From: Bryobacterales bacterium
GTDB lineage: Bacteria; Acidobacteriota; Terriglobia; Bryobacterales; UBA6623
Assembly (NCBI GenBank): GCA_965242625.1
Contig: CBDEST010000005.1
Location: 1,773,632-1,837,631, forward strand
DNA: 64,000 nt
Direction of reading: 5' to 3'
The position numbers were made by a program, and so were the translations under genes. Below, one piece after another: positions 33,391 through 60,286 of the stretch (position 1 is the stretch's first letter; each line of letters opens with the position of its first letter). The notes under the pieces are model-generated. The model did not search any database, had not been told where the DNA came from, and worked only from the letters and a program-made list of their open reading frames with translations.

Positions 33391-33628
33391 TGAAGAACCG
33401 GCACGGGGGCGATAGCTGTCGGAAGCCATCGGCGTGCTGCTACTCCCTCCATCCTCGACGAGAGTCCCTCTCTGTGGCTCCGCTTCAGAAACCCGACGAT
33501 TCCCGGGATCCGTCTCCCGCGCTGGCAGTACGCCGGCGCGGAGGCGGGCCACTGGGGTGCGATAATCACGGCAATCGTCGGCCAGCCGCCCGCGGCCGCT
33601 TGCGGAAGCGCGGCCCAGCGATGACTCC

Positions 33629-35911: not shown

Positions 35912-35959
35912 GACTGGGCGCTATTATCCTTTCACACTCGGGTGCGTGAGGCGCGAGGA

Positions 35960-36219: not shown

Positions 36220-36492
36220 CCAAGGAAAGTCGGAACTACCAAGAAATTCGCCAAGGGTGATCGCCGCCGCTTTCAGAGCCCGCTCGCTGACAAGATCAAT
36301 GAGATACTGACGCTCTTGGAGTCCGGTGCCACCCCGGTGGAGTTGGAAGAGAATGGCTGTCAGATCCATCGACTGACCGGCGACCGCAAGGGTGCCTACG
36401 CCATCGCGGTCTCGGCCCGCTACCGCATCGTCTTCCACTACGAGGACGGTGACGTCTATGATGTGGAAGTGATCGACTACCACAAGAGTTGA
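36220..36492 (+). pseudogene. higB: HigB/RelE-like toxin fragment (second copy)
   Basis: The frame opens after the TAG at 36217-36219 and ends ...YDVEVIDYHKS with TGA at 36490-36492. Near-identical to 28035-28307. No start codon. Confidence 0.6.
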
Positions 36493-36506
36493 GAAAGGAT
36501 GATCCA

Positions 36507-36929
36507 ATGGAACCGGATATCAACCGAGCGGATCCGCCGCCCGAGCTGTACGCCATCGACGGTGCCGTGCCGGCCGCAGTGCTCGAGGCGAAGGTCGAGT
36601 GGCTGCGCCGCAACCCCATGCACCCCGGGCGGCTCATCGCCGGCACCTGCGAGCGCAAGTCTCTCAGCACGGCGGAGGCAGCCGCGCTGTTGGGCATCGC
36701 GTGCGCGGACCTGACCGAGGTGATCGAGCAACGGGCACCCGTCACGCCCGAACTCGCCCTGCGGATGGAAGCGGCAGGCTGGTTGAAGGCCGCTACTTGG
36801 ATGCGGTCGCAGAGTGCCTACGATCTCGCGCAAGCGCGGAGGAGACTCGAGCGCACCGGGGCGATCCCTGCGGCGGCGGCCCCTGCACGGCAGCAAGCCA
36901 GCACCATGGAGTCCGCGGCCGCGCGCTGA
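36507..36929 (+). CDS. higA: HigA-family HTH antitoxin (second copy)
   Basis: Near-identical to 28322-28744. Confidence 0.7.
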   Translation: MEPDINRADPPPELYAIDGAVPAAVLEAKVEWLRRNPMHPGRLIAGTCERKSLSTAEAAALLGIACADLTEVIEQRAPVTPELALRMEAAGWLKAATWMRSQSAYDLAQARRRLERTGAIPAAAAPARQQASTMESAAAR

Positions 36930-37321
36930 GCTAGCGATTCAGGCGCGAGGGCTGCATAGGCACCTGCGGAGAGCACACACGGCTTACCTCGCGGTGAGCC
37001 TGCCGGGCACGATCTCGTCGGAGGCCTTGGCATCCTCATCAAGGGCCGGACATGAGTGTCGCGGCAAGGATTCGCGTCCGCCACAAGAGCACCTGCGCGG
37101 TATCCTGGCGGGCCTCAACTCGGAGATGACTCCCGGGCACCCATTGGCTGCGCGGCACGCTCGCCGCGCAGCTCGGCGGCGCATGGACATCGCCCCGTGG
37201 ATCCAAGCCGCGGGCTAGCTGGAGCACTACGAAGAAGCTCACCGGCAGAGACCTGCGCGGCATTCCTGACCGCAACCGCCCAGACCGGACCCCGAAACAC
37301 GCTCCAGCTCTATCGCGAGCT

Positions 37322-37780
37322 TCAGCGCTCGAGACGACCCAGCGATCGTGGCGATCCCTTCTTCTGTTGCTCGCCCGCAGTTTCGTTCGCGGACATGGCG
37401 GAACCGGCAAAACCGCACCAAGCCACATAGCGTTTGCATGTGATCCATGCAACCGCTGGCAACAGCACGGCAGGAACCACCAAGTCCTCCGGCTGGCTAC
37501 TCAAGATCTGCGTCTGCTGCAAAGACGCTAGCACCGCCATGAACACGAGATAAACAGTGACAGAGCGCAGGAGATCACGTTTGCTGAATGTTCTTGCGCT
37601 GTTGCGTAGTGGTGGGTTTCTGGCTAGGCCGATCTCGGCTAGCGCGACGAAGGCCACAGCCATGCAGAGCCAGAGGATCACGTACTCGTAGCGACCCGCG
37701 GCTCCGAGTCCACACACACCAGCCAGAGCGACAGTGGCACCGCACCACGCGCACCGCGTTCCGATCCCGCTAGGACTCAC
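37322..37780 (-). CDS. integral membrane protein, hypothetical (copy of 29141-29599)
   Basis: 152 aa, near-identical paralog. Confidence 0.45.
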   Translation of the reverse strand: MSPSGIGTRCAWCGATVALAGVCGLGAAGRYEYVILWLCMAVAFVALAEIGLARNPPLRNSARTFSKRDLLRSVTVYLVFMAVLASLQQTQILSSQPEDLVVPAVLLPAVAWITCKRYVAWCGFAGSAMSANETAGEQQKKGSPRSLGRLER

Positions 37781-38129
37781 TGCTGCACACCGCCGTATAC
37801 GTGTATAGCGTCTCGTACGACACGCACACGAGGGAGCCTACCAAACAGGCTGGTATACCGACAATCTGACCAAAGGCCGGAACGGCATTAGGCCAGACAG
37901 TGCATGTGGCAAGCCACAGGGCGCATCGAGTCGTCCCGTCTGCAATCTCGTCCCGGCACCTGACTTCACACTCAGAAGGCTCGTCCTCGACCGGCTCGTC
38001 CTCGCCTTGGGCTTGCGTCGGTACAACAAGCAGTGAGACGAGACAGACGAATGCGAAACCGATCAAGCTGTGCCTGGTCATTTCGCGCCTCCTGTGAGGC
38101 GAGGACGCCTTGCGGGGCAAGCGGTGCAA
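37770..38129 (-). CDS. small Cys-rich secreted or membrane protein (copy of 29589-29948)
   Basis: 119 aa, near-identical paralog. Confidence 0.4.
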   Translation of the reverse strand: MHRLPRKASSPHRRREMTRHSLIGFAFVCLVSLLVVPTQAQGEDEPVEDEPSECEVRCRDEIADGTTRCALWLATCTVWPNAVPAFGQIVGIPACLVGSLVCVSYETLYTYTAVCSSES

Positions 38130-38658
38130 CGTGCATTGCGATCAGCAACTGGATCATCGGCCCGCTCCACGAACCGTTGCATGTCCTCGTCGCTCAAGTT
38201 CGGATCGACTTTCGTTGCGACTGGTCGGACAATTGTCGAGAGAGATTCCGGGTCGCCGCCGTTTAACGAGTAGCCTTCCCGGATGCCCTTGGAGAACTCC
38301 ATTGCTTGCGGGAGACATGGCAGTAGCGCGGTCTCTCCAAGCGACACGCCATCGCGAGCATCATACTGGCTAAGACTGTCGGCAACGTCGATGCACCCGT
38401 GCAGCATCGCTGACAGTTGTGGCGAGTTTCCGTTCCGGTCGGATCGGCACCGTTGGCTAGCAAGACGCGCATCACGGCGTGGGTTCCCCTCGACATCGCT
38501 AAGTCCATAAGCGTGAGGTTCATGTCGTCCGTGTGATGCGGGTCAGCACCGTGCCCAAGCAAGGCCCTGACTATCCGCAAGGAGCAATCAGTCCCCGTCT
38601 GTCCGCGCATGACGGCGTAATGAGGCGCAGTTCTCTTCCTGTGGCTCTCTGCATTCAC
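38078..38658 (-). pseudogene. ankyrin-repeat protein, same frameshift as 29897-30477
   Basis: GTG start at 38658. ANK repeats lie in two frames (131-aa and 109-aa track ORFs). Confidence 0.5.
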
Positions 38659-40390
38659 TGAAGCACACTGGCGCTGGCAGTACGCCAGCGCGGAGGCGCA
38701 CCACCGGGGTGCGATAATCGCGGCAATCGTCGGCCAGCCGCCCGCGGCCGCTTGCGGAAGCGCGGCCCAGCGAGGACTCCATGCCGAGCGCGGATCACGG
38801 GCGGCGCGATGCCTTGCCAGTCGGCACGGTCCTGCGGGAATTCACGATCCAAGCGGTGCTCGGGCACGGGGGCTTCGGGATCGTCTACCGGGCCGGGCAC
38901 AACGAACTGGAGCTGACGGTCGCGATCAAGGAATACCTGCCGGTGGAACTGGCCGTGCGGGAAGGCGCGACGGTGCAGCCGCGGAGCGGGACGGAGCGCA
39001 AGGACTTCGCGGAGGGGCTGCGACGGTTCCGGGACGAAGCGCAAGCGCTGATCGATTTCGACAGCCATCCGAGCATCGTGTCGTGCCGGGAGTTCTTTCG
39101 GGCGCACGGGACGGCGTATCTGGTGATGGGGTACGAGGAGGGGCAGTCGCTGGCGGAAGTGCTGGCAAGGCGCGAAGCGGAGGGACGACCGTTTGAGGCG
39201 GCGGACTTGCTGGGGGTGATGCAGCCTGTGCTGGAGGGGTTGGAGCGCGTCCACGCGGCGGGGGTGCTGCATCGAGATATCAAGCCTTCGAACATCCTGA
39301 TCCGGCGGCGGGACGGGCGGCCGGTGCTGATCGACTTCGGAGCGGCGAAGCAGGCAGCGGCGAGGTTCAGCAAGTCGCAGGCACCGTACACGGAGGGGTA
39401 CGCGGCCTTGGAACAAGTGGCGGACGCGGGGAAGCTGGGACCGTGGACGGACATGTACGGAGTGGGAGCGGTGATGTGGCGGATGGTGGCGGGCGGGAAG
39501 CGGCCGTGGGAGCCGCCGCATCCGGTGCGCGTGGAACAGCGCTCGCATGCGGCGCTGGGTGGAACGGAAGATCCGATGCCGTCGGCGAGGGAGCTGGGCA
39601 AGGGTCGGTTTCCGACGCCGATGCTGGAGGTCATTGACCGGTGCTTGCGGCTGCGGGAAGGGGAACGGATGCAAGGCTCGCGCGAGCTGCTGGAGGCTCT
39701 TGGTGAGGTGAGCGAGCCGCGTCCGGTGGGATTTCCGGGGGCCGCTCGGCCGCTGGCCGAGCGAACTGGCGCGAAGCGACAGGAACGGGGGCCGCGTGCA
39801 ACGCCAGTACGCGCAGAGCCGCGCACAGGGTGGCGACGGGGTGGGTGGATCGCGCTGGCGAGCTTGGTGGTCGGGTTGGGGCTGGTGGTTGCCACATGGT
39901 GGAGTTCCGGCTCCGAGGAAACGGTTCGCGATCAAGTGCCCGCCGGCGCCTCGGATGGCGTAGGAGACGAGATCGCGGTATTGGAGCGAGAGGAATCGGT
40001 GGATTCGGTTCCGAGCCCCGACCAACCGACCGAGGATCGGGAGTCCCCGCTGGAAGCCGGCGGGAGCGCTCAGGACCCAGATCCGATCTCGGTTGGATCT
40101 GGCCGCAATGAAGAGGATGCCGAAGCCGAGAGCGGGCGGGATAGCGACGACAGCCTCAAGGTGGGGCCGGAGGGGTCGCAAGACAGTTTGGCGCAGCCCT
40201 GGATTCGGGATTGGGACGCATTGGGGGACATCCGCGATCCGGGATTCGCCACGACAGCGCAGGCGTACATCGAAAAGTACAAGGAGGTGCCTGAGGCGAG
40301 CGTGTGGGTAGCCAAGGCGGAAGGGCTGCTGGCCGAGCTGGCGGAGTTGGAAGCGGCGAGTCCAACGCGGCGCGAGGCAGGCGAGTCGTG

Positions 40391-42174
40391 AGTTCATTCC
40401 AATCCGAAAATGAGCCTGAACGAGGGCCGAGGGAAGGGATGCGGGAACGGAGTGATTATAGACCCACGGGAGGGTCTGCTGCAAGCCCAGTGCCACCGCC
40501 TTATGCTAGGAAGGCAGCCGAAGCGGACGCGCGGCTCTGCCGAGGGGCAACCGCGCTAGGAATAGGTTGCGCTGGTGACCGATGGTCCCCCGGGGCGGTT
40601 CCGGTTGGAGCCGCCCCGGTCATGGTCGTCGGCACGGGGCCCTTCCATCGGGGCCAGCTCATGCCTAAGGAAAACCTCGGGGGGTTCGGGGGGCAGAGCC
40701 ACCCGTCAGATAACAAGGCTGCGCCCGCAGGGCGCAGACCGATGACCCCGCTGGAGCGCACCGCGGCACGGCCCGTGCGGAAAGACTCGATTCCAACGTG
40801 AGATGAGCCTGAACGAGGCCGCGCTCAGGCCGCCTCCCGCAGTTCCGCGAAGAGCGCCTCGCGCGCCTCTTGCAGAGCGCGCGCCGCTGCGTGGTCCGTC
40901 TGCGCGTGCGCCTCCCGGTCCAACTCCGCGAAGCTCACCTCCGGCCGCAAGTAGCGCGCCGCCTCCGGCAGCGCCTTGAGCCGCTCGTACGGCGTGCGGA
41001 TGTCGGCTGGCCGGTAGACCTTGCGCTGCTTCCCCTTGGCATCCGTCTCCACGCGCGGGTACAGGCACGGCCGGTGGTAGTTCAGGTACGGGTCCAGCAC
41101 CTCGCGGTGGAACCGGTCCAGGCGCTCCGCGTGGCGTCCCGGGATGTGCCCGTACCCGAATTGCTTGCGGATCACGCTGCCGTTCTTGCTCTCCGCCAGG
41201 GCGTTGTCGTTGCTGCGCCGCGGGCGCGACTTGGTGAACTCCTCCACGCGCAGCTTCTCCAGCAGCGCGGCCACTTGGTAGTTCACGTACTCGGACCCGT
41301 TGTCGGAGTGAAACCCATGCACGACAAAGGGGAACGACTCCAGCAGCCGCTCCAGCACCGGCACCAGGTAGCGCTCGGAAATGCGCTCCACGCACCCCGT
41401 GAACTGGTACTGGGTGACCGTGTCGACCGCGTTGATGTGATACACCCCCTTGACCTTGTCGAGGTCGCCCTGATGCACCGAGTCCACCCGCACCCAGCCC
41501 GGGCGGCCCTCCGGGCGCGGCTTGCGCCGCTCGCCGATCGGCACCGTCGCGGGGCGCGTGCCGTCCAGGTTGCCGAGCACGCGCACGTAGGCCGTGGAGT
41601 GCCGCAAATTGTACAGGTGGCCGTGGGAGATCCCCGCCAGCCGCTCGTAGCGCTCGTCGCCGAAGACCTCGAAAGCCCGGCGCAGCAAGGCCATCGTGGC
41701 CGGGCCGGACAGCGTGCCGTGCAGCGCGTCCGTCTCGGCCAGCAGCAGGATGTCGTCCCGCGTGTAACGCCGCGGGAACGGCCGCGCCGCCCCCGTGCGC
41801 CCGTCCGCCACGCCCCCGTTCTCGATGTACGCCGCGATCAGCCGCGCCACCTGCGCCCGCGACAGCCCCGTCGTCCGCTGCAAGTACGTCCGCAGCAAGC
41901 CCCGCTCCGCGCGCTTGTTCAGCTTCCAGTACGAGAACCGCCGCATCGTGCGCTCCACGTGCGCGTACGCCTCCGTACGCGACGGAGCCAGCGCCGCCTC
42001 CGGCGGCGTCGCCTCCAGGAACTGACGCACGTCCGCCAAGGTCCGGTGCGTCGCCAGATCGATTTGCAAGATCACCCTCCGATGATCCGCGCATCCCCAC
42101 CGGAGCCTCGTTCAGGCTCATCTCTCGTTGGAATCAACCCCCTCGTTCAGGCTCATCTCTCGTTGGAGAAGACT
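40391..42174 (-). mobile_element. IS element with an rve-type DDE transposase (ISNCY/IS1202-group-like, tentative), 1784 bp
   Basis: A 5-bp direct repeat TCGTG flanks it (40386-40390 and 42175-42179). The imperfect ~34-bp TIRs AGTTCATTCCAATCCGAAAATGAGCCTGAACGAGG and the reverse complement of CCTCGTTCAGGCTCATCTCTCGTTGGAGAAGACT share the core ATGAGCCTGAACGAGG. A second, inner copy of the end sequence sits at each side (40783-40817 and 42107-42135). Confidence 0.8.
40825..42075 (-). CDS. DDE integrase/transposase (rve core)
   Basis: 416-aa ORF with an N-terminal HTH-like region. The catalytic-core signatures read ...VDSVHQGD...HINAVD..., FHSDNGSEYVN and RPRRSNDNALAESKNGSVIRK. Confidence 0.85.
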   Translation of the reverse strand: MILQIDLATHRTLADVRQFLEATPPEAALAPSRTEAYAHVERTMRRFSYWKLNKRAERGLLRTYLQRTTGLSRAQVARLIAAYIENGGVADGRTGAARPFPRRYTRDDILLLAETDALHGTLSGPATMALLRRAFEVFGDERYERLAGISHGHLYNLRHSTAYVRVLGNLDGTRPATVPIGERRKPRPEGRPGWVRVDSVHQGDLDKVKGVYHINAVDTVTQYQFTGCVERISERYLVPVLERLLESFPFVVHGFHSDNGSEYVNYQVAALLEKLRVEEFTKSRPRRSNDNALAESKNGSVIRKQFGYGHIPGRHAERLDRFHREVLDPYLNYHRPCLYPRVETDAKGKQRKVYRPADIRTPYERLKALPEAARYLRPEVSFAELDREAHAQTDHAAARALQEAREALFAELREAA

Positions 42175-42904
42175 TCGTGGATGAATTCGTTGGGCATGGA
42201 GTTTGTCTGGATTCCTGCGGGGAAATTCCTGATGGGCTCACCGGCGAACGAAGAGGGTCGTTATCCCGACGAGAGTCAGCACGAGGTGCGGATCAGCGAG
42301 GGGTATTGGATGAAGAAGCACGAGGTGACGCAGGGCGAGTGGGTGGCGGTGACGGGTGCGAACCCGTCGCGTTTCTCCAAATGCGGTCCGCTGTGCCCAG
42401 TGGAGGGAGTGTCCTGGGTCGATACGCAGGAGTTCATACGGAGGTTGAACTCGCGGGAATCCGGGAGGGGGTACGTGTACCGATTGCCGACAGAGGCGGA
42501 GTGGGAGTACGGGGCGCGGGCGGGGACGCCCGGGGCGCACTACGGAAAGTTGGACGGTATCGCGTGGTATCGGGCAAACAGGGGCAGGAGGACCCATCGG
42601 GTAGGGCAGAAGCGGCCTAACGCGTGGGGCTTGTATGACATGCTGGGAAACGTGTGGGAGTGGACGGGGGACTGGTACGGCGAGTATCCGTCTGGTTCGG
42701 CGACGGATCCCGGGGGGCCCGAGTCGGGCTCGTACCGGGTGAATCGGGGTGGCGGCTGGAGCGACGACGCGGGGAACGTTCGGTCGGCTATTCGCTTCAG
42801 CGCCCAGCCCGATGCCCTCGGCAGCAGCCTCGGCTTCCGCTTGGTCAGGACAGAGTGATACTTGGTGCTACTGCCCTTTCACCCCTGGGTGCGTAAGGTG
42901 CGAA

Positions 42905-43379
42905 GAGTGCGTGCGTCGGCTCGCGAAGGCCGGAGCGAAAGCGAACGAGCCGTGCGGCAAAACGCACGCCTGGGCTTGGAGTTGTTCTTTGAGCGCGGTC
43001 TGGGGTAATCGGGCGGCGGCCGGCGGCTCCGAGGACGGCAGTTCGAATCTTCTCTCCCCTTCGGGACGCAATGGGCGGTTGGAGCAAAGCTGAAATGTCC
43101 GGTTGAGTCTGGGCCTGCGGCGTCGGCCATTCTGTCGCGGTCGAACCCTCCATCGAGGGGCTCCCTTGCTGAGGAAAATCGGAAGCATTGGGTGCTGTCC
43201 GGTAAGCCCGTGCGCTTCCCGGGGGAGAGGCTGGGGAGGGACTACGGCTTCGCATACCTGAGTGTCTGGAAGGGTAGCTTCGCGTTACCGACGGTCGGAT
43301 CTTGAACGAGAGCCGAATGCGGGAAATCCGTACGCTCGGTTCGAAGAGTGGAGAGCGGAAACGTAGTCAAGGTAGAGAC
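42905..43379 (+). repeat. group II intron relic R5
   Basis: Standard spacer unit. Domain V at 43310-43342 (GAGCCGAATGCGGGAAATCCGTACGCTCGGTTC). Confidence 0.65.
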
Positions 43380-43607
43380 CAATGAGCCGGCACAGAGGAG
43401 AAAGCCGTTGGTGAACGGCTACTCCCTCAATCGTCGACAAGCACGCCTCTCGTTGGCTCCGCCTCAGAAACCCGATGATCTGTGGGATCCGTCTCCCGCG
43501 CTGGCAGTACGCCGGCGCGGAGGCGGGCCACTGGGGTGCGATAATCACGGCAATCGTCGGCCAGCCGCCCGCGGCCGCTTGCGGAAGCGCGGCCCAGCGA
43601 TGACTCC

Positions 43608-44684
43608 ATGCCGAGCGCGGATCACGGGCGGCGCGACGCCTTGCCAGTCGGCACGGTCCTGCGCGAATTCACGATCCAAGCGGTGCTCGGACACGGGGGC
43701 TTCGGGATCGTCTACCGGGCCGGGCACAACGAACTGGACCTGACGGTCGCGATCAAGGAATACCTGCCGGTGGAATTGGCCGTGCGGGAAGGCGCGACCG
43801 TGCAGCCGCGGAGCGGGACGGAGCGCAAGGACTTCGAGGAGGGGCTACGACGGTTTCGAGACGAAGCGCAAGCGCTGATCGATTTCGACAGCCATCCGAG
43901 CATCGTGTCGTGCCGGGAGTTCTTTCGGGCGCACGGGACGGCGTATCTGGTGATGGGGTACGAGGAGGGGCAGTCGCTGGCGGAAGTGCTGGCAAGGCGC
44001 GAAGCGGAGGGACGACCGTTTGAGGCGGCGGACTTGCTGGGGGTGATGCAGCCTGTGCTGGAGGGGTTGGAGCGCGTCCATGCAGCGGGGGTGCTGCATC
44101 GGGACATCAAGCCGACGAACATCCTGATCCGGCGGCGGGACGGGCGGCCGGTGCTGATCGATTTCGGAGCGGCGAAGCAGGCCACGGCGAGGTTCAGCAA
44201 GTCGCAGGCGCCGTACACGGAAGGGTACGCGGCTTTGGAACAAGTGGCGGATGCGGGGAAGCTGGGACCGTGGACGGACATGTACGGAGTGGGAGCGGTG
44301 ATGTGGCGGATGGTGGCGGGCGGGAAGCGGCCGTGGGAGCCGCCGCATCCGGTGCGCGTGGAACAGCGTTCACACGCGGCACTGGGGGGAACGGAAGACC
44401 CGATGCCGTCGGCGAGGGAGCTGGGCGCGGGTCGCTTTCCGTCGCAGATGCTGGAGGTCATCGACCGGTGCTTGCGGCTGCGGGAGACGGAACGGATGCA
44501 AGGGTCGCGCGACCTGCTGAAGGCGTTGCGCACGGTAACTGATCGGTCTCGCCTTGGGTCCCGTATCGTAGGCCACAATGACAGAATCAGCGCGATCCGC
44601 TCCAACCCACCAACAGTGACTCTGAGCGCGACGAGCAGCCAACGTCGACGTTACGCGCAAGCTCATCAGCCTCACCGATGCTAG
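43608..44684 (+). pseudogene. Ser/Thr kinase, array copy 6, 3'-truncated (kinase domain only)
   Basis: Homology to the other copies ends near 44525 (...MQGSRDLLKALR). The remaining 50 codons are unrelated sequence leading into the low-GC island. There is no TM helix, FGE domain or variable block. Confidence 0.75.
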
Positions 44685-44849
44685 CCTTCGCAGAAACAGC
44701 CTCTGACAGCCATCCCGCCCTTACGCCGGTGCCGGCATAATCCCTCCGTACTTCCGCGTTCGTGAAAGTTACTCAAGACTGCTAGCAAGAATGCTGATTC
44801 TTCGATGAAAGAAACTTTGATCTTAAATCGCCAACGAAACAGAACCACC

Positions 44850-47321
44850 TTACGACGCCGCTGCCTTAGGCACAGCGATGCTCAAATACTCTCGTTTCAA
44901 GTCATCACGCAACTGAACAAGGTCCTTCTCGCGGGGAAACTTTCGAGTGCCCTCCTCTAATGTTGATACGAGTGTTCGCAAATAGCGTCCCTTATCCTGT
45001 CCACTCATTCCTCTTCTGGACCATGCCAGACCTTGGCTTCCTAGAACGTGGTAAGGGTAACTGCTAAAACGATCAGGCTTACCGATCAGATCTTCCAGTA
45101 TACTTGTGGCTTCTTTCACCAACTTTGGTGCATCCTTGCTCTGAGGGTGCTGGATAGCCCTTCGTAACAGCAAATACGCCCATTCATTCTGAACCATTGG
45201 GTCACCGTCTGCAATCGCTTTAGCTTGGCCTAGGAACTGCTCTGCTGAATCCAAATCCCCCTCTTCGACCTCGACACTACCCCTCTGCAACCAGTAGTGA
45301 TAATCCCAACTCAGTAAAGACTCTAAAGACGAATACAGATTCCTAGCGACATCTAGGCCAACTACACGTAAGAGATAGTCGTGACTCAACAAGACCTGAA
45401 GCATCTTCTTAGGACGGTCAGACCGTGACATGTCTTGTCTAACCTTCGTCGCAGCTAGGTGTGCAAGTCCCTCGATAACTCCCTTGAGTTGACCCGCGTC
45501 TTGCAACTGATCGTGAATTATCTCGGCGATCATTCTGTGACGGGCCCAAATCACTCCGTTTGCACCGAGTTTCAATACCTTCCGATTCACTAGTTGATCA
45601 GTTGCGTTCAGGATTTCATTCGACACGCTGCCAGATGCGATGAGTAATTCGTCTCTCTTGATGCCAAATCGGAACGAATGTGCCACTGCAACGAATGCGT
45701 AGATCATTGCAGAAATGGTACCCAACTCACCCAGTTCATCGATGACTTTCTCGTCGAATCGACGGCCAGAAGTTGCTTGTATCATCGCAACAAGAAGCTG
45801 TCTTCCAGCTTGTTCTTGAAAATTCTTGCGCTGCTGGGCACGTGGCAAACCCTTCATAGATCCAAGCCGATTGTACTTGTCCAAGAGATCAATTAACCCA
45901 TCGATATCGTTATTAGTTAAGTGAGGCATGGGAATCTCATCGATTGCGATGTTGTGGAGCATGGACCTGTTCACGACCTTATCGACCTTACTTGAGCGAA
46001 CTGCGATAATGATTACCCTCGATTTGTCATTGCCGATCAATTCAGAAACCAGATGAGATAGTGTTGCTCCATACATGTCAGCATCATCAATCGCAAGTAC
46101 TTGAGGGCTGTATTCGCGATTCATTTCTCGATGGATATTTCGCTGCGAAATCATGTGGTCTCTGTCGACCCAAGCAACAGCAGACCCCTGTCCTTGAAGA
46201 CGAAGGCATACCCTCATGAGGGAAGTGCTCTTGCCAGATCCTGCAGTCCCAGTCACGACAATTAATCGTCCCCTTGAAGCTTCGATGCTACGTTGGATAT
46301 TTGTCCAAACCTCCTGATCGATACTTCGTTGTACAGCTCGTCCTGATTGTAAATCAGCCCAGATGGGTTCTTGACCCAGTAAGAACTCGCTCGCTTCGAG
46401 TGGGTTTGTGGCTAGATCTGCTACCAATGGAAGCCGCTTGGAGTGTTCGGCGGTCGACTGAGCAAGGACGCTCAGACCAATGTGAGCTTCCTTCTGTACT
46501 TGTTTGAGTACACGGCCCACAAACTGTTCCGCTGTCATTGGAATCCATTCGATGTTCAGATCCGCTAGCAATGCTTTTCTTGCCATGACCAATTTTGGTG
46601 TGACCAGATAAGATCTAGGGCGTAGTTCACGCAATTCTCTACCTCCGTGAACACGACGATACTCAATGTGTTGCCATAGTGGTGGTTCGTCTAGGCGGGT
46701 GCCAATAATTATTACCGGACGACTCACTAAGTCCGCAGCAAAATCCTGATAATACGGGTCAGGATGAGCAAATCGGTCCGCGTATTGTGTAAGGGAGAAT
46801 GTCACATCGTGGGGCAAATCCTCCAATGTTCCGTTGAGATGAATTACCTTCAGTAGAGATTCGCTGAGTTTTTTTGTAGAAGACATTGGGTGCTTTGCGG
46901 AAACTGCGGCAAGCGGCCGAGGTAAATCAAAGGCTGAATTTGCGGCATCGGCCATGTTGTCTATATTTAGAGTATAGCACCGATACCAAGGCAATGAAAA
47001 CACCTGTCGATACCAATCTGGTAATGTACTTGAACTTATCGTGAGCATGTCTCGTAGAAGAGATTCTGCCTGACGTGGATGTCGTCTCAGCGCATGGTCA
47101 TACAGATCTTGCAATGGAGAACCGTCGAATTCGTCATTTGGGAAGCAAAGCCTCCAAAGTGCATGCTGAAGATCTTCGTAGGATGGCAGTCTGTGGTTCG
47201 TGGCAGTCGCTGCTTCCAATGAAAAGCCGGCTCCGGTGAAGAGCACGGGCAGTCCGCTTTGAAACTGAGTTTTGAGGTGTGGAATGAAAGTGTTATCCAG
47301 CTTTTCGTCAATGATACTCAT
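44850..47321 (-). CDS. SIR2-like (SIR2_2) - P-loop STAND NTPase - TPR-like repeat protein (Avs/SIR2-STAND-like defence candidate)
   Basis: 823-aa ORF in a low-GC island. N-terminal SIR2_2 hallmarks: PVLFTGAGFS, YTLNIDN, IHLNGT, VIIIGTRLDEPPLW. Walker A is IVVTGTAGSGKSTSL and Walker B is VLAIDDADMY. The C-terminal ~300 aa are helical and repeat-like. Confidence 0.8.
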   Translation of the reverse strand: MSIIDEKLDNTFIPHLKTQFQSGLPVLFTGAGFSLEAATATNHRLPSYEDLQHALWRLCFPNDEFDGSPLQDLYDHALRRHPRQAESLLRDMLTISSSTLPDWYRQVFSLPWYRCYTLNIDNMADAANSAFDLPRPLAAVSAKHPMSSTKKLSESLLKVIHLNGTLEDLPHDVTFSLTQYADRFAHPDPYYQDFAADLVSRPVIIIGTRLDEPPLWQHIEYRRVHGGRELRELRPRSYLVTPKLVMARKALLADLNIEWIPMTAEQFVGRVLKQVQKEAHIGLSVLAQSTAEHSKRLPLVADLATNPLEASEFLLGQEPIWADLQSGRAVQRSIDQEVWTNIQRSIEASRGRLIVVTGTAGSGKSTSLMRVCLRLQGQGSAVAWVDRDHMISQRNIHREMNREYSPQVLAIDDADMYGATLSHLVSELIGNDKSRVIIIAVRSSKVDKVVNRSMLHNIAIDEIPMPHLTNNDIDGLIDLLDKYNRLGSMKGLPRAQQRKNFQEQAGRQLLVAMIQATSGRRFDEKVIDELGELGTISAMIYAFVAVAHSFRFGIKRDELLIASGSVSNEILNATDQLVNRKVLKLGANGVIWARHRMIAEIIHDQLQDAGQLKGVIEGLAHLAATKVRQDMSRSDRPKKMLQVLLSHDYLLRVVGLDVARNLYSSLESLLSWDYHYWLQRGSVEVEEGDLDSAEQFLGQAKAIADGDPMVQNEWAYLLLRRAIQHPQSKDAPKLVKEATSILEDLIGKPDRFSSYPYHVLGSQGLAWSRRGMSGQDKGRYLRTLVSTLEEGTRKFPREKDLVQLRDDLKREYLSIAVPKAAAS

Positions 47322-47621: not shown

Positions 47622-47841
47622 GACCCCTGGGCACGGTGCAGGCCGAGCCCTCGAACCTACCCTGCACGATCATCTGCCTGCCATCGCTGACCGAGTTGAA
47701 TCGTTGCGACGGCAAGTTGATGAACCCAAGGCACCTGCCGGTCATTATACACGCACTGTCACGGGATCCGCAATGCCAGACTAGTTCAACGAGATATGAG
47801 CATCCGTCTTGGAGGTCACGGGCGGTTTTCATGTATGCCAA
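47614..47841 (-). CDS. possible small ORF upstream of 47334-47621
   Basis: 75-aa ORF overlapping the next ORF by 8 nt, in the same orientation. No motif recognised. Confidence 0.2.
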   Translation of the reverse strand: MAYMKTARDLQDGCSYLVELVWHCGSRDSACIMTGRCLGFINLPSQRFNSVSDGRQMIVQGRFEGSACTVPRGRD

Positions 47842-47845
47842 TCAA

Positions 47846-48960
47846 GTCCGTGCGTTCATGTGGGTGCCTTTGCAACTAGCCGGGTACCTAACCGGCGGGA
47901 CTTGCGGCGTCGGTGGCGAAGGGGTCGCATAGCGGGACGCTGCAAGTGGCCTCGCTTGCTCCGCTGCCGGGCAATGTCTACCAGACGACATGACGCCTAC
48001 GGTCGATCGCGACGGTCGCTTCGCGAAAAGACCAAGTGAAACAAGGCCTTTGGGGTGAGCTGGACGCTCGCCGGAGAGTCGTAGCCGGCCAGCGCCCGTG
48101 ATAATGATTTCGGCCCCACAGCGGCCGGATGCGGACCCAGCGAGGAGCGCAGTGGCGGACTACCGTGCCGGTTGCGCGAGTCTTTGTCGAAGGGACTCTT
48201 TCGCGGTGGACAGCTAGCTGGGATCACGATTTGCATCGGTAAGGCGTAGCGTTCGGCGAGGGCGCACTGGCGCACGATCCCGATCTCGGGGCTCCCGACC
48301 CGCGCAAGCAGTCCGATCTGCCCCAAAGAAGCGATCCGATCGAGGCTGATCAAGGAGTCCCACAGCTTCCGCAACCGGGATCATGAACTGGAAATCCTTA
48401 TCATTCTCAACTGGCCAGAGGTCGTGTTGTCTGGTCTACATGCACTTTGCGTGGAAGACGCTGGGCCGCGCTTGGCAGGTCGGCGCAGTAATCGTCCATT
48501 ACCCGGACGGCCCCGTGATCTGCGGGCGGGTCCCGGAGGCACCAAAGCGGTCGGCGGTCGAGCGGCTGATGGAGCGGCTGCCGTTGCCGCCGGACGCGAC
48601 GAAGACTCGTTCCATGCGCGCGGGGGAGGAGCCGTTGGAGTTCCTCCCACAACGGGCCACGCAACTACATCCCAGTACGGGCAAAGCGTACGTAGGCACG
48701 CGCCCGCGCCTCAAGATCGATCCGTGATCGGAAGCGCGGGACGGACTGCTGCCTGCGACGGAGGTAGTGGAAGGCCCCAACCGAGCCATGCTCGGCTGGG
48801 CGAACTAGTTCTGCCTAGGATGGGCGAGCCCGTCCCACGCGGCCGTCGACGCGCTCGGGCTCAAGCGGCTGCGCCAGTGGCTGGGGAGGTGGCCCGAGGC
48901 GGAGTCCGGGAAATCCGCACGCCCGGTTCGACGAGCGGAGAGGGGAAACGTAGTCAAGGT
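47846..48960 (+). pseudogene. long group II intron relic (RT domains 4-7, X, degenerate domain V/VI) carrying a MITE insertion
   Basis: 47846-47981 aligns with 17172-17300. After the MITE, 48434-48730 reads IVHYPDGPVICGR ... PPDATKTRSMRAGEEPLEFL, with YADD decayed to YPDG. LGWAN*F shows a stop inside the maturase motif. A degenerate domain V lies at ~48897-48929, followed by a domain VI-like segment and then the standard leader of array copy 7. Confidence 0.65.
47982..48433 (+). mobile_element. MITE-like element, copy C (452 bp), inserted into the RT relic
   Basis: TIRs CAGACGACATGAC (47982-47994) and GTCGTGTTGTCTG (48421-48433). A 6-bp direct repeat GTCTAC flanks it (47976-47981 and 48434-48439). 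The uninterrupted homolog of the target is at ~17300. Confidence 0.75.
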
Positions 48961-49082
48961 AGAGACCGAGGCACCTGCACAGGGGCGAGAGCTGTCGGCG
49001 CGCTGCTACTCTCTCCATCCACGACAAGTGCGCCTCTCGTTGGCTCTACCTCAGAAACCCGATGATCCGCGGGATCCGTCCC

Positions 49083-49194: not shown

Positions 49195-51480
49195 ATGCCG
49201 AGCGCGGATCACGGGCGACGCGACGCCTTGCCAGTCGGCACGGTCCTGCGGGAATTCACGATCCAAGGGGTGATCGGGCACGGGGGCTTCGGGATCGTCT
49301 ACCGGGCTGGGCACAACGAACTGGACCTGACGGTCGCGATCAAGGAATACCTGCCGGTGGAACTGGCCGTGCGGGAAGGCGCGACCGTGCAGCCGCGGAG
49401 CGGGACGGAGCGCAAGGACTTCGAGGAGGGGCTGCGCCGGTTCCGGGACGAAGCGCAAGCGCTGATCGATTTCGACAGCCATCCGAGCGTCGTGTCGTGC
49501 CGGGAGTTCTTTCGGGCGCACGGGACGGCGTATCTGGTGATGGGGTACGAGGAGGGGCAGTCGCTGGCGGAAGTGCTGGCGAGCCGGGAGGCGGAGGGAC
49601 GGCCGTTCGCGGCGGCGGACTTGCTGGGGGTGATGGAGCCGGTACTGGAGGGGTTGGAGCGTGTCCATGCAGCGGGGGTGCTGCATCGGGATATCAAGCC
49701 GTCGAACATCCTGATCCGGCGGCGGGACGGGCGGCCGGTGCTGATCGACTTCGGGGCGGCGAAGCAGGCCACGGCGAGATTCAGCAAGTCGCAGGCGCCG
49801 TACACGGAGGGGTACGCGGCCTTGGAACAAGTGGCGGACGCGGGGAAGTTGGGACCGTGGACGGACATGTACGGGGTGGGAGCGGTGATGTGGCGGATGG
49901 TGGCGGGCGGGAAGCGGCCGTGGGGGCCGCCGCATCCGGTGCGCGTGGAACAGCGCTCGCATGCGGTGGTAGGCGGGACGGAAGACCCGATGCCGTCGGC
50001 GAGGGAGTTGGGGAAGGGTCGGTTTCCGTCGCAGATGCTGGAGGTCATTGACCGGTGCTTGCGGTTACGGGAGACGGAACGGATGCAAGGTACGCACGAG
50101 CTGCTGAGGGCCCTTCGTGGGGTGGGCGAGTTGCTTCCGGCAGGGTCCGCAGAGATCGTGCGGCCGCTGGAGGAGCGAACTGGAGTCAAGCGGCAGGATG
50201 CGGGATCGCATGCGACGCCAGTACGCGCAGAGCCGCGAACAGGGTGGCGCCGCGGTGGGTGGATCGCGCTGGCGAGCTTGGTGGTCGGGCTGGGGTTGGT
50301 GCTGGCGACATGGTGGGGTTCGGGATCGGAGGAAACCGTACGCGATCAAGCACCTGCTGGAGCCTTGGATGAACTTGGTGTCGAGAGTGGAGACCCGGAG
50401 CGAGTGGAGGAGGATTCGGTTCCGAGTCCCAACCAGCCCGCCAAGAACCGGTCGTCCCCGCCGGAAGCTGGCGGGACCGCTCAGGATCCAGATCCGATCT
50501 CGGTCGGATCTGGACGCACTGAAGAGGCTGCCCAAGCCGAGAGCGGGCGGGATGGCGAAGACAACCTTGAAGTGAGCCCGGAGCCGTCGCAAGACAGCTT
50601 CGTACAGCCTTGGATCCGGGATTGGGATGCCATGGGAGACATCCGAGATCCGGGATTCGCCGCGACAGCGCGGGCGTACATCGAACGGTACAAGGAGATC
50701 GATGAGGCGAGCGTGTGGGTTACGAAGGCGGAGGGGCTACTGGCCGAGTTGAGGGAGTTGGAATTGGTGACAGCAACGAAGCGCGAGGCAGGCGAGACGT
50801 GGACGAATTCGTTGGGGATGGAGTTCGTCTGGATTCCGGCGGGGAGCTTCCAGATGGGCTCCCCGGCGGAGGAAGTGGGTCGTTGGCCCGACGAGCAACA
50901 GCACGAGGTCCGGATCAGCGAGGGCTTTTGGATAGGGAAGAATGAGGTGACGCAAGGGGAGTGGGTAGCGGTGATGGGAACGAACCCGTCGGCGTTCTCA
51001 GATTGCGGCATGCGTTGCCCGGTCGAGAGTGTGTCGTGGGACGACACGCAGGAGTTCATACGGAGGTTGAAGTCGCGGGAATGGGGGAACGGGTACGTAT
51101 ACCGATTGCCGACCGAGGCGGAGTGGGAGTGCGCGGCTAGGGCGGGGACACCCGGGGCGCGCTACGGCGAGTTGGGCGCAATCGCGTGGTATTCGGCAAA
51201 CAGCGGCGATAGGACGCATCCGGTCGGGCAGAAGCGGCCTAACGCGTGGGGCTTGCACGACATGCTGGGAAACGTCTGGGAGTGGACGGGAGACTGGTAC
51301 GGCGCGTATCCGTTCGGTTCGGTGGCGGATCCAAGAGGTCCCGAGTCGGGCTCGGGCCGGGTGGATCGGGGCGGCGGCTGGAACAACGGCGCGGGGAGCG
51401 TTCGGTCGGCGCATCGCTACAGCTACTCGCCCGGCTTCCGCTACCTCGGCATCGGCTTCCGCTTGGTCAGGACAGAGTGA
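49195..51480 (+). CDS. Ser/Thr kinase - TM - linker - FGE-sulfatase protein, array copy 7
   Basis: 761 aa with all motifs. Variable block at 51355-51453. Confidence 0.9.
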   Translation: MPSADHGRRDALPVGTVLREFTIQGVIGHGGFGIVYRAGHNELDLTVAIKEYLPVELAVREGATVQPRSGTERKDFEEGLRRFRDEAQALIDFDSHPSVVSCREFFRAHGTAYLVMGYEEGQSLAEVLASREAEGRPFAAADLLGVMEPVLEGLERVHAAGVLHRDIKPSNILIRRRDGRPVLIDFGAAKQATARFSKSQAPYTEGYAALEQVADAGKLGPWTDMYGVGAVMWRMVAGGKRPWGPPHPVRVEQRSHAVVGGTEDPMPSARELGKGRFPSQMLEVIDRCLRLRETERMQGTHELLRALRGVGELLPAGSAEIVRPLEERTGVKRQDAGSHATPVRAEPRTGWRRGGWIALASLVVGLGLVLATWWGSGSEETVRDQAPAGALDELGVESGDPERVEEDSVPSPNQPAKNRSSPPEAGGTAQDPDPISVGSGRTEEAAQAESGRDGEDNLEVSPEPSQDSFVQPWIRDWDAMGDIRDPGFAATARAYIERYKEIDEASVWVTKAEGLLAELRELELVTATKREAGETWTNSLGMEFVWIPAGSFQMGSPAEEVGRWPDEQQHEVRISEGFWIGKNEVTQGEWVAVMGTNPSAFSDCGMRCPVESVSWDDTQEFIRRLKSREWGNGYVYRLPTEAEWECAARAGTPGARYGELGAIAWYSANSGDRTHPVGQKRPNAWGLHDMLGNVWEWTGDWYGAYPFGSVADPRGPESGSGRVDRGGGWNNGAGSVRSAHRYSYSPGFRYLGIGFRLVRTE

Positions 51481-51526
51481 CACTGGGCGCTATTACCCTT
51501 TCACCCTCGGACGCGCGAAGTGCAAA

Positions 51527-51994
51527 GGGGCGTGCGTCAGCCAGCGAAGGCCGGAGCGAAAGCGACTGAGCCGAGCGGCAGAACGCACGCCGGGGCTTGG
51601 GGTTGTCCTTTGAGCGCGGTCTGGGGCAGTCCGGCGGCGATCGGGGTCTCCGAGAGCGGAACCGCAAATCTTCTCCTCGGTACGCAGAGAGTTGTTGGAC
51701 CAAGCTGAAATGTCCGGTTCCGTCGGGGCCTGCGGCGTCGGCCCTTGCGTTGTGGCCGCACCCTCCATCGGGGGGCTCCCTTGCTGAGGAAAATCGGAAG
51801 CACAAGGTGCAGAGCGGGAAGCCCGTGGGCTTCCCGGGGGAGAGGCTGGGGCTGGACTACGGCTTCGCATACCGGAGTGTCTGGAAGGGTAGCTTCGCGT
51901 TACCGACGGTCGGATCTTGAACGAGAGCCGAATGCGGGAAATCCGCACGCTCGGTTCGACGAGCGGGGAGGGGAAACGTAATCAAGGTGGAGAC
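51527..51994 (+). repeat. group II intron relic R7
   Basis: Contains RT domain 0-4 remnants and the intron-protein C-terminal remnant NRKHKVQSGKPVGFPGERLGLDYGF. Domain V at 51925-51957 (GAGCCGAATGCGGGAAATCCGCACGCTCGGTTC). The domain VI-like segment runs to ...GGTGGAGAC. Confidence 0.65.
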
Positions 51995-52222
51995 TGAAGA
52001 ACCGGCACGGGGGCGATAGCTGTCGGCGCACTGCTACTCCCTGCATCCTCGACAAGCGCGCCTCTCTTTGGCTTCACCTCAGAAACCCGCTGATCCGCGG
52101 GATCCGTCTCTCGCGCTGGCAGTACGCCAGCGCGGAGGTGCGCCGCTGGGGTGCGATAATCACGGCAATCGTCGGCCAGCCGCCAGCGGCCGCTTGCGGA
52201 AGCGCGGCCCAGCGATGACTCC

Positions 52223-54160: not shown

Positions 54161-54206
54161 CACTGGGTGCTATTACCCGTTCACCCTCGGACGCGCGAAG
54201 CGCAAG

Positions 54207-54676
54207 GGGGCGTGCGTGAGCAAGCGAAGGCCGGAGCGAAAGCGACCGAGCCGAGCTGCGGAACGCACGCCTTGGCATGGACTGCCCGTTGATCGCGGAT
54301 CCGGGCAGTGCGGCGGCGGTCGGAGTCTCCGAGAATGCCAGATTGAATCTTCTCTTCCCTGCGGTAGGCGAAGGGCGGTTTGAGCAAAGCTGAAATGTCC
54401 GGTGCGGTCGTGGACTGCGGCTTCGGCTCTTCCGTTGCGGTCGAACCCTCCATCGGGGCTCCCTTCCTAGGGAAAAATCGGAAGCACAGGGTGCAGTCTG
54501 GGAAACCCGTGCGCTTTCCGGAGGAAAGGCTGTGCATGGACTACGGCTTGGTGCGCCAGAGTGTGGAAGCGCGGCTTTGCGTGAGTGAAGGCATGATCTT
54601 CAAGGAGAGCCGAATGCGGGAAATCCGCACGCTCGGTTCCGCGAGCGGGGAGCGGAAACGCAATCGAGGTGGAGAC
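54207..54676 (+). repeat. group II intron relic R8
   Basis: Standard unit. Domain V at 54607-54639. Confidence 0.65.
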
Positions 54677-54904
54677 TGAGGCACGGGCACGGGGGCGAGA
54701 GCTGTCGGAGAACCGCCACCCCCTCCATCCTTGACAAGCGCGCCTCTCTTTGGCTTCACCTCAGAAACCCGATGATCCGCGGGATCTGTCTCCCGCGCTG
54801 GCAGTACGCCAGCGCGAAGGCGCACCGCTGGGGTGCGATAATCACGGCAATTGTCGGCCAGCCGCCCGCGGCCGCTTGCGGAAGCGCGGCCCAGCGATGA
54901 CTCC

Positions 54905-56887: not shown

Positions 56888-56934
56888 CGCTTTGCGCCAT
56901 CGCCATCTAACCCTCGGGTGAGCGAAGCGCGAGG

Positions 56935-57407
56935 ACGGGGAGCGTCGGCTAGCGAGGGCCGGAGGGAAAGCGACCGAGCCGAGCGGCAGAACGCAGGCCC
57001 GGGCTTGGAGTGTCGATTGATCTCGGATGCGGGCGATCCGGCGGTGGTCGGAGTCTCCGAGAACGGGACCTCGAATGTTGTCTTCCCTTCGGGACGCAAT
57101 GAGCGCTGGGATCAAAGCTGAAATGTCCGGTTCCGTCGGGGCCTGCGGCGTCGGCCCTTGCGTTGTGGCCGCACCCTCCATCGGGGGGCTCCCTTGCTGA
57201 GGAAAATCGGAAGCACAAGGTGCAGAGCGGGAAGCCCGTGGGCTTCCCGGAGGAGAGGCTATGGATGGACTACGGCTTCGCATACCTGAGTGTCTGGAAG
57301 GGTAGCTTCACGTTACCGACGGTCGGATCTGGAACGAGAGCCGAATATGGGAAATCCCCACGCTCGGTTCGACGAGCGGGGAGCGGAAACGTAATCAGGG
57401 TGGAGAC
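56935..57407 (+). repeat. group II intron relic R9
   Basis: Standard unit. Domain V at 57338-57370 (GAGCCGAATATGGGAAATCCCCACGCTCGGTTC), with upper-stem mismatches. Confidence 0.6.
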
Positions 57408-57635
57408 TGAGGTGCCGGCACAGGGGCGAGAGCTGGCGGAGAACCGTTACTCCCTCCATCGTCGACAAGAGCGCCTCTCTGTGGCACCACCTCAGAAACC
57501 CGATGATCCGCGGGATCCGTCTCCCGCGCTGGCATTACGCCAGCGCGGAGGTGCTCCGCTGGGGTGCGATAATCACGGCAATCGTCGGCCAGCCGCCAGC
57601 GGCCGCTTGCGGAAGCGCGGCCCAGCGATGACTCG

Positions 57636-59654: not shown

Positions 59655-59702
59655 CACCGGGTGCTATTCCCCTTTCACCCTCGGACGCACGAACTGCGAG
59701 GA

Positions 59703-60061
59703 GGACGTGCGTCGGCCAACGAAGGCCGAATCTTCTCTTCCCTTCGGTAGCCAATGGGCGGGTGGAGCGACGCTGCAATGTACGGTTGGGTCGGGGCCTG
59801 CGGCGTCGGCCATTCCGTTGCGGTCGAACCCTCCCTCGGGGTCTCCGTTGCTGAGGGAAATCGGAAGCTCTGGGTGCTGTCCGGGAAGCCCGTGCGCTTC
59901 CCAGGGGAGAGGCTGTGGATGGACTTCGGCTCGGCACGCCTGAGTGAGCGGAAGCGTAGCTTCGCGTGAGCGAAGGTCGGATCTGGAACGAGAGCCGCGT
60001 GCGGGAAATCCGCACGCTCGGTTTGAAGTGTGGAGAGCGGAAACGAAGTCAAGGTGGAGAC
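59703..60061 (+). repeat. group II intron relic R10 (with an internal ~110-bp deletion)
   Basis: Standard unit missing the segment after GAAGGCCG. Domain V at 59992-60024, ending GGTTT instead of GGTTC. Confidence 0.6.
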
Positions 60062-60286
60062 CGAGGGGCCGGCACAGGGGAGAAAGCCGTTGGTGAACGG
60101 CTACTCCCTCAATCCTCGATAACGCCTCTCTTGGGCTCCATCTCAGAAACCAGATGATCCGCGGGATCCGTCGGCCGCGCTGGCAGTACGCCAGCGCGGA
60201 GGCGCGCCAGTGGGGTGCGATAATCACGGCAATCGTCGGCCAGCCGCCCGCGGCCGCTTGCGGAAGCGCGGCCCAGCGATGACTCC

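Follow-up and report, generated by a model that had tools for sequence, protein, structure and literature searches.

Kinase-FGE gene array and its spacer repeat

The window, a stretch of 64,000 nucleotides that was analysed at its full length, carries on its plus strand 11 copies of one kinase-FGE gene arranged head-to-tail (21143-61416). The N-terminus of the array gene is a Ser/Thr protein kinase (Pkinase, E = 1.6e-35), while the C-terminus comprises an FGE-sulfatase/C-type-lectin-like domain (E = 8.5e-43). The 3' ends of the genes are kept in 10 array copies and, when aligned, display invariant blocks separated by hypervariable codons. The variation in this C-terminal part of the CLec/FGE fold falls at particular codon positions, a pattern judged by eye on the alignment without quantification, and it has the look of the variable region (VR) of a DGR target. 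BLAST of the VR revealed no additional VR-like copy that might represent a template repeat (TR) within the 64-kb window, and no intact reverse transcriptase (RT) was found there, such that the array is accompanied in the window by neither a cognate TR nor a DGR RT. Since related arrays terminate in an RVT_1 protein of 1139 aa or 1272 aa, the DGR partner probably lies outside the window. The neighbourhood of the array looks like a defence island and includes two type IIG-like methyltransferases, an AbiEii-like ATPase, a SIR2-STAND protein, an M78 peptidase with an HTH domain and HigBA-like genes.

A first-pass annotation of this DNA had proposed that each gene is followed by a conserved unit of ~470 nt beginning 45-50 nt after the stop codon. 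BLAST of 51481-52222 against the window, together with alignment, confirmed that a repeated spacer accompanies the kinase-FGE genes and revealed that the repeat is the entire 742-nt spacer, extending from the stop codon to the next ATG; the homology to introns begins 313 nt after the stop codon. The spacer 51481-52222 is used here as the reference, with unit 1 at 51481 and unit 742 at 52222. The full or nearly full spacers identified by BLAST are the following.

32889-33628, plus strand: full or nearly full spacer
42859-43607, plus strand: full or nearly full spacer
51481-52222, plus strand: full or nearly full spacer, the reference
54161-54904, plus strand: full or nearly full spacer
56888-57635, plus strand: full or nearly full spacer
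59655-60286, plus strand: full or nearly full spacer, with a deletion of about unit 74-188

The remaining spacers are altered in different ways. The spacer that precedes the first array gene (20453-21142) begins at unit 64, S2 is interrupted by a 1.7-kb insertion accompanied by an 8-bp target duplication, S3 and S5 (27734-30599 and 35912-38780) contain a 2.4-kb block in place of unit 319-630, and the array end (S12) is cut at unit 101 (61518). Breakpoints recur near unit 319-345 in S3/S5, in S7 and in the related loci L200 and L201 described below, and they also cluster inside the post-VR element (unit 64, 73/74 and 101). Judged from their positions, these clusters may point to repeated rearrangement.

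A group II intron relic in the spacers

The spacer element is a non-functional group II intron relic that contains domain V and the C-terminus of an intron protein. Its copies are distributed as follows, with the 489-aa intron protein of L003 used as the tblastn query.

20704-20997, plus strand: relic copy S1, ahead of the first array gene (21143); domain V (20835-20867) with 6 substitutions; tblastn
25460-25743, plus strand: relic copy S2b; RF00029 28.3 bits at 25589; tblastn
33200-33483, plus strand: relic copy S4, with the best preserved domain V of the copies; RF00029 46.8 bits (33319-33448); tblastn
43179-43462, plus strand: relic copy S6; RF00029 36.3 bits at 43308; tblastn
51794-52077, plus strand: relic of the reference spacer; RF00029 36.6 bits at 51923 (E = 1.8e-5, local search); tblastn and blastn
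54478-54759, plus strand: relic copy S9; RF00029 35.0 bits at 54605; tblastn residues 427-488, E = 3e-9
57207-57490, plus strand: relic copy S10; domain V with 4 substitutions; tblastn
59861-60141, plus strand: relic copy S11; RF00029 40.1 bits (59990-60109)
47790-49049, plus strand: long relic copy S7; RT domains ~4-7 and X in several frames; tblastn residues 264-454, E = 2e-22 (47790-48964)
17118-17762, plus strand: long relic copy L, outside the array; RT domains ~4-7 and X in shifted frames; tblastn residues 258-448, E = 9e-17

The presence of domain V in the repeat, as proposed from the first reading of the sequence, is borne out by the matches to the Rfam covariance model RF00029, which lie above the gathering score of 40 bits in two copies (S4 and S11) and below it in four more. 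The 33-mer originally quoted as domain V occurs exactly at 33321-33353, and the counterpart in the reference spacer (51925-51957) differs from it by one base. Six copies are found within 3 mismatches, against 0 expected by chance, and 9 at up to 9 substitutions, domain V being recognisable in nine window spacers. It displays the two-helix hairpin with the catalytic AGC triad, with broken pairs in several copies. The proposed remnant of an intron-protein C-terminus also proved real: the string ..RKHKVQSGKPV.F..ERL..DYG.. is found in the spacers, which match residues 427-488 of the L003 protein (tblastn, E 3e-9 to 7e-4). The conceptual translation of the longer relic copy (L) gives matches to TIGR04416 (group II RT/maturase, E = 7e-6) and to the Pfam family GIIM (E = 0.005); neither comes near the cut-off for a full-length protein, as is to be expected of a fragment. 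The short string GAPLLRKI had been taken for RT motif 4; by colinearity with the longer copy it corresponds to the X-domain sequence RLRQ.KHK in another frame, and the real motif 4 (AAPLLSKVYA) survives only in the long copies.

Structural features required of a functional intron are lacking in the relic. No domain I-IV family was matched at E <= 1 across the window or at E <= 10 in a local search, in agreement with the earlier statement that domains I-III are absent, and the 5' end of the relatives, GTGCGCCGTG.., of the GUGYG type, is missing from the relic copies. No copy encodes an intact protein with RT domains 0-7 and X/maturase: the short copies retain only residues ~427-488 of 489, and the long copies retain residues ~258-454 in several frames with stops, YADD having degenerated to RADE. 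Copy L contains the RT motifs AAPLLSKVYA .. NRADEVVICG .. LNATKTR and is devoid of domains V and VI; the genes that come next are HigA/HigB-like and lie on the minus strand. S7 is interrupted by a 455-nt repeat (47981-48433), has lost the 5' half of domain V, keeps domain VI and adjoins the gene starting at 49195 on its upstream side. What remains in the short copies is a colinear series of protein C-terminus, domain V, domain VI and 3' boundary.

An exact-pattern scan for domain V, with one genome per species, identified more than 100 loci distributed over many phyla, several of them full-length introns that carry RF02003 domains I-IV (63-104 bits) together with the same domains V and VI; these relatives, which occur in other phyla, possess an intact protein gene of 456-489 aa. 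Comparison of the reference spacer with L005, L003, L007 and L018 by blastn aligned unit 314-598 only (E 5e-35 to 1e-15). The intron-derived part thus amounts to ~285 nt (51794-52077), comprising the last ~60 protein codons, domain V and a long domain VI, and ends 145 nt before the next ATG. The reference spacer is organised as follows.

51481-51526, plus strand: immediate 3' flank of the VR gene (unit 1-46), non-intron
51529-51591, plus strand: post-VR element, non-intron; conserved in the window, L200, L201 and L199
51594-51793, plus strand: spacer segment, unit 114-313; window/L200/L201 lineage only, absent from L199
51794-51922, plus strand: intron-protein remnant of ~60 codons (end of X/maturase and C-terminal tail); tblastn residues 427-449 and 470-488; blastn alignments begin at unit 314-315
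51925-51957, plus strand: domain V, with the AGC triad and one pair broken (A.C) in this copy
51961-52077, plus strand: domain VI, from alignment with relatives from other genomes
52078-52222, plus strand: former 3' exon, now leader of the following kinase gene; the best-conserved stretch of this spacer

Three bases separate domain V from domain VI, the outer helix of which pairs 51961-51973 with 52061-52074 around an internal insertion of ~90 nt that is typical of this intron class. The 77-nt Rfam model takes part of this insertion for domain VI, and the domain had initially been read as a helix ending in GGAGAC; its true 3' strand is 52061-52074. The 3' end of the relic was fixed at ~52077 because relatives from unrelated genomes all cease to align after ...CGACTCTAC, the relic counterpart of which, ...TTTGGCTTCAC, ends at 52077. 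The bulged branch-point adenosine of the relatives, contained in CGACTCTAC, is a G at 52071 in the relic, where the helix remains recognisable by homology. Tested on 15 relatives and two window copies, the domain V/VI model has 98.8% of its cells paired and 8 covarying pairs, values reached in 0/500 shuffles; domain V is partly preset by the search pattern in this test, and domain VI, which contributes 6 of the covarying pairs, is free of it. An alternative RNAalifold pairing of GGTGGAGAC with the 3' end was rejected in favour of the helix that covaries in the live relatives.

The spacer upstream of unit 314 has a different character. The first-pass annotation had taken the 5' part of its unit (51527-51793) for the start of the intron open reading frame; unit 1-313 (51481-51793) bears no similarity to intron RNA or protein by nhmmer (a nine-copy profile run on 118 loci and the remainder of the window), by tblastn (confined to the spacers) or in a local Rfam search at E <= 10. 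The immediate flank of the VR gene holds a small GCGCGAAG(Y)GC hairpin, has a mean pairwise identity of 0.74 and is also found in the relic-free L199. The post-VR element consists of a 9-bp inverted repeat, GGCGTGCGT / ACGCACGCC, around a nearly invariant 36-nt core (51544-51579) that lies about 64-99 nt downstream of every VR and is kept even in the array without relic. No covariation or compensatory change was detected in the post-VR hairpin among 18 copies from four genomes. Unit 114-313 has a mean identity of 0.775, and the fold of unit 1-320 is of no unusual stability in relation to shuffled sequence (z = +1.08). The intron debris is now set apart from the conserved 36-nt core, which may be the more interesting feature of the spacers.

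Shared lesions, related arrays and divergence of the copies

All short copies present the identical 5' truncation point (unit 314), and other derived changes are also common to all of them. The branch-site change CGA to TGG/GGG is present in all 9 window copies as well as in the copies of L200 and L201, and the 5' exon junction of the intron is preserved in no copy. The relic is found in 7 of the 10 spacers that follow a VR, S3 and S5 having been replaced and S12 cut, and therefore does not stand after every gene as had been claimed. Two more copies, S1 and S7, have no kinase gene upstream. Since the 3' exon of the relic is the 145-nt leader of the next gene, and S1 and S7 lack an upstream kinase gene, the relic belongs to the upstream region of the repeat unit; it seems to follow each gene because the units stand in tandem, which corrects the view that it is glued to the 3' flank of the targets. 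The relic is assigned to the downstream gene by means of copies S1 and S7 and the placement of its 3' exon. The distances between relic copies show no correlation with those of the upstream or downstream genes (r = -0.10 and 0.14, respectively) and, as they are star-like and track neither neighbour, co-inheritance with a particular gene is not directly demonstrable from them. IIC introns insert right after hairpins; for the present intron class, the 5' exons of five relatives are inconsistent in this respect.

A protein search with the product of gene 49195-51480 revealed many close homologues; the comparison covered three loci. Synteny with the window is seen in L200, which has the same M78 and HigB genes and a first spacer that also begins at unit 64. 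Its long relic copy is 95% identical to that of the window, and its relic-bearing spacers match RF00029 with 41.1 and 37.9 bits; in one further spacer, beside an intact gene of 697 aa, unit 346-601 is missing, which removes the relic almost exactly. In L201, the kinases of which are ~79% identical, the relic is present; its domain V has decayed further (3 and 9 substitutions) and gives no Rfam match at E <= 1. L199 contains at least six genes in tandem, with kinases ~69% identical and spacers of ~390 nt that have only unit 1-114 and 666-742 in common with the window. The ~200 nt in the middle of these spacers are unrelated to the window spacers, the last ~77 nt of the leader are common to both, and no intron signal was detected in L199. 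No group II match was found in fourteen more distant kinase-FGE loci, and BLAST of the VR identified no TR in L199, L200 or L201. The relic is a lineage-specific passenger, which, judging by this distribution, would have entered or spread in the array after the split from L199 and before the lineages of the window, L200 and L201 diverged. As a counterpoint, it persists in these three diverged lineages.

Divergence among the window copies was compared with that of neighbouring sequence. In the nine copies, 86.2% of the domain V/VI cells are paired, versus 86.0% in shuffled alignments, with one double change; the substitutions break pairs without compensation. The original description of the relics as non-functional introns is upheld. 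In pairwise comparison, the copies have a mean identity of 0.83 in the protein remnant, 0.89 in domain V and 0.81 in domain VI. The corresponding value reaches 0.93 in the leader (52078-52222), versus 0.92 at the 4-fold sites of the first 50 codons, and the 4-fold sites display values of 0.88-0.92 in the adjacent kinase domain and 0.60-0.72 in the FGE domain. The identity of the relic (0.81-0.89) is therefore no higher than that of the adjacent kinase 4-fold sites. Gene conversion with its centre at the 5' end of each gene, and not a constraint on the relic, fits this gradient. Domain V (0.89) is, however, somewhat better kept than its neighbours (0.81-0.83), which is weak evidence of constraint, as domain V spans 33 nt only and base pairs are disrupted by its substitutions. 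The spacer yielded no site resembling a promoter or a terminator, and S3 and S5 are devoid of the relic, the gene following S3 (30600-32888) being an intact open reading frame. Nothing indicates that the relic is under selection.

Origin of the relic and comparison with known systems

The best reading of the relic is a single dead insertion, multiplied together with the genes by tandem amplification. Among the three origins first envisaged, the results support the one in which an ancestral insertion was co-amplified with the gene. The intron, a mobile group II element with RF02003-type domains I-IV and an endonuclease-less protein of ~450-490 aa, would have inserted once, in sense orientation, ~145 nt before the start codon of an ancestral kinase-FGE gene. 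It would then have died through loss of domains I-IV and most of the protein gene and mutation of the branch-point adenosine, leaving ~285 nt with the last ~60 codons and domains V and VI. Unequal recombination would subsequently have amplified the gene, together with its flanking sequence, into a tandem array that was partly homogenised by gene conversion. The fossil would in this manner have come to lie in almost every spacer, functionless, decaying neutrally and now and then deleted or replaced. We assign this history of insertion, death, amplification and neutral decay a probability of roughly 85%. The identity and boundaries of the relic, its shared lesions, the lack of structural constraint and the absences are read directly from the DNA, and from them we infer the order of events and the mechanism of recombination.

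Homing of a live intron, repeatedly and independently, into the same site of each spacer with subsequent decay would be in keeping with the site-specific homing of group II introns and with the identical target sites that the spacers represent. Such repeated insertion, also among the origins first envisaged, is excluded because the truncation point and the lesions are shared: the short copies have unit 314, the branch-site substitution and other derived changes in common. Domains I-IV are, moreover, found nowhere in the window and the 5' exon junction in no copy, and the post-VR element is 200 nt distant from the relic and exists in a relic-free array as well, such that this reading has practically no probability. 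It is very improbable, too, that the copies are internally deleted introns retaining both ends, with a GTGCG at 51531 as the 5' end and 51527-51793 as a remnant of domain I or of the start of the open reading frame. The pentamer does stand at the start of the unit originally delimited, and ORF-less deletion derivatives exist in this intron class (L007). However, the relatives begin with GTGCGCCGTGAAAGGCGCG, which does not match the GTGCG segment; unit 1-313 has no match to the intron relatives or their protein; even a lax local search gave no domain I-IV match; and the segment with this GTGCG is conserved in the relic-free L199. DGR RT genes normally adjoin their targets and related arrays end with a large RVT_1 protein, which would suit a reading of the RT-like remnants as decayed DGR RTs from duplicated target-TR-RT cassettes. 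This explanation is scarcely credible: domains V and VI, absent from DGRs, come after the remnants, whose matches are to TIGR04416, the X domain of group II maturases and group II intron proteins with domains I-IV upstream, and the window contains no TR copy.

A further explanation, that the domain V/VI hairpins were exapted in a leader or 3' UTR and retained for stabilising, terminating or processing the transcript, takes up the last of the origins first envisaged, a 3' UTR or terminator structure. The relic is indeed intergenic and on the coding strand, 145 nt ahead of the following ATG, is kept in the window, L200 and L201, and has a slightly better conserved domain V than its flanks. Variation in domains V and VI is nevertheless uncompensated, though the same helices covary strongly in live relatives, and divergence is no lower than at neighbouring synonymous sites. 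The spacer is free of terminator-like or promoter-like sites, the relic is missing from S3, S5 and one L200 spacer, each beside an intact gene, and it is absent from L199 and the 14 distant loci. Exaptation is consequently unlikely. We consider it distinctly unlikely that the domain V-VI remnant was kept as a leader RNA element acting in processing or stability, or as DNA homology driving expansion and contraction of the array. If true, the RNA element might be a signal that splits a polycistronic array transcript into single-gene messages, and on either version a domesticated ribozyme fragment would serve a hypervariable sensor array.

On the preferred reading of a single dead insertion, the relic is an ordinary genomic fossil and not a working part, and it matters little biologically. 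Bacterial genomes commonly contain truncated group II introns as debris, and the relic is frequent in the window only because the neighbouring gene was amplified. The annotation is corrected accordingly: the intron part is the 285 nt upstream of each gene and not a 470-nt unit flanking the VR. The shared lesions also serve as a marker, indicating that the array grew from one repeat unit, or was homogenised, after the L199 split.

The full-length RF02003 (group-II-D1D4-4) introns of L003 (Rhodothermales MAG OZ244823.1, ~5553-7560) and L018 (Latescibacterota MAG OZ244744.1, ~2553-4545) show what the intact element looks like. The closest solved structure to the endonuclease-less protein of the full-length relatives (456-489 aa) is the GsI-IIC RT (6ar1; E = 1e-46). 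The relic has in common with these introns the domain V sequence, the long domain VI with its internal insertion and the protein C-terminus RKHK..SGK..RF....L....G..RL, encoded by a gene that runs into domain V. It differs from them in the absence of the 5' GTGCG, domains I-IV and the branch-point adenosine and, in the short copies, of RT domains 0-7. At the level of the gene array, the closest comparison is with Thiohalocapsa PB-PSB1, in which multi-copy DGR targets with kinase and C-type-lectin/FGE domains occur in conflict-system loci shaped by duplication and mobile elements (PMC10907252). Both systems present duplicated targets, a VR at the C-terminal end of an FGE-type domain, defence-like neighbours, and insertion elements and MITE-like repeats that degrade parts of the locus. 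In contrast to Thiohalocapsa, in the account of which the word 'intron' does not occur (PMC10907252), the debris within the repeat unit of the window is a group II intron tail, and the TR and RT of the DGR are not present in the window. Frequent truncation of group II introns was noted in the description of an intron-annotation pipeline (PMC4028801), and truncated or fragmentary bacterial group II introns are documented by an RmInt1-related remnant in Sinorhizobium (PMC4181065). Similar to that remnant, the relic described here is 5'-truncated, non-splicing, intergenic and in neutral decay, with its 3' part kept. Unlike the RmInt1-related remnant, it is present in 9 copies within 40 kb, which arose by gene amplification and not by movement of the intron.

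Conserved element downstream of the variable regions

Behind the variable regions (VR) of the kinase-FGE genes, a short core sequence was identified at a fixed distance from the stop codon:
51544-51579 of the window: 36-nt post-VR core, GCGAAGGCCGGAGCGAAAGCGACCGAGCCGAGCGGC, at +64 to +99 after the stop codon

The core lies at an equal offset behind the other VR-bearing gene ends examined (9 of 10 in all), the copy in spacer S11 being cut by a deletion. It was also found in the related arrays L199, L200 and L201 and is nearly invariant in the four genomes, despite a kinase identity of only ~69-90%. The core is enclosed by a 9-bp inverted repeat, and no covariation was observed among copies from the four genomes. 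Breakpoints of rearrangements are concentrated within the element (positions 64, 73/74 and 101 of the spacer repeat unit, counted from the stop codon). Its possible roles include that of a DGR target-site element and that of a site of recombination.

The window contains neither an intact reverse transcriptase (RT) nor a template repeat. Two of the related arrays end in a very large RVT_1 protein, each adjoined by a small ORF:
L199 15604-19023, minus strand: RVT_1 protein of 1139 aa
L201 8668-12486, plus strand: RVT_1 protein of 1272 aa

A BLAST search of the retrieved flanks of the related arrays revealed no VR-like template repeat.

Divergence gradient and rearrangement of the array

Among the paralogues (window 21143-59654), leader identity is 0.93, and 4-fold degenerate sites are ~0.9 identical in the kinase domain but only 0.6-0.7 identical in the FGE domain. 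Such a gradient points to gene conversion with its centre at the 5' end of each unit.

Several gene copies and spacers are disrupted by additional sequences, and a further repeat is dispersed in the window:
38781-42858: copy G5 of the gene, interrupted at about 40392-42140 by a ~1.7-kb insertion
within 43608-47321: gene copy G6, truncated beyond the kinase domain
44850-47321, minus strand: SIR2/nSTAND-NTPase gene, after truncated G6
23699-25423: 1.7-kb insertion in spacer S2, with an 8-bp target-site duplication, AACCCTCC
28051-30486 and 36236-38667: 2.4-kb block, two copies 95% identical
1304-1788 (plus), 10321-10772 (minus) and 47981-48433 (plus): ~455-nt repeat, 71-86% identity

The G5 insertion has inverted repeats at its termini and carries a minus-strand ORF of 471 aa, and the SIR2/nSTAND-NTPase gene constitutes an insertion in mid-array. 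The S2 insertion, which contains a 557-aa ORF (23638-25311, minus strand) without a match in Pfam, looks like an unclassified insertion element. In two spacers the 2.4-kb block replaces unit positions 319-630; it carries a HigA-like HTH ORF (28304-28744), a relative of which (17786-18229) adjoins the long relic copy, and a minus-strand ORF that by eye appeared ankyrin-like. The ~455-nt repeat, one copy of which lies within the long RT relic of spacer S7, is possibly a MITE-like element.

The intron class in other genomes

The domain V pattern matched three loci (L007, L022 and L027) on Bryobacterales chromosome OZ252029.1, including:
L007 5583-6386: ORF-less derivative of the relic's intron class, with just ~470 nt separating domain V from the match to domains I-IV

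The homologues of the RT fragment in the database (P0005-P0122) consist almost entirely of short called ORFs, 100-224 aa in length, that contain RVT_1 and/or GIIM. This suggests that the relic's intron family is represented in metagenome assemblies by many copies that are fragmented or frame-shifted.
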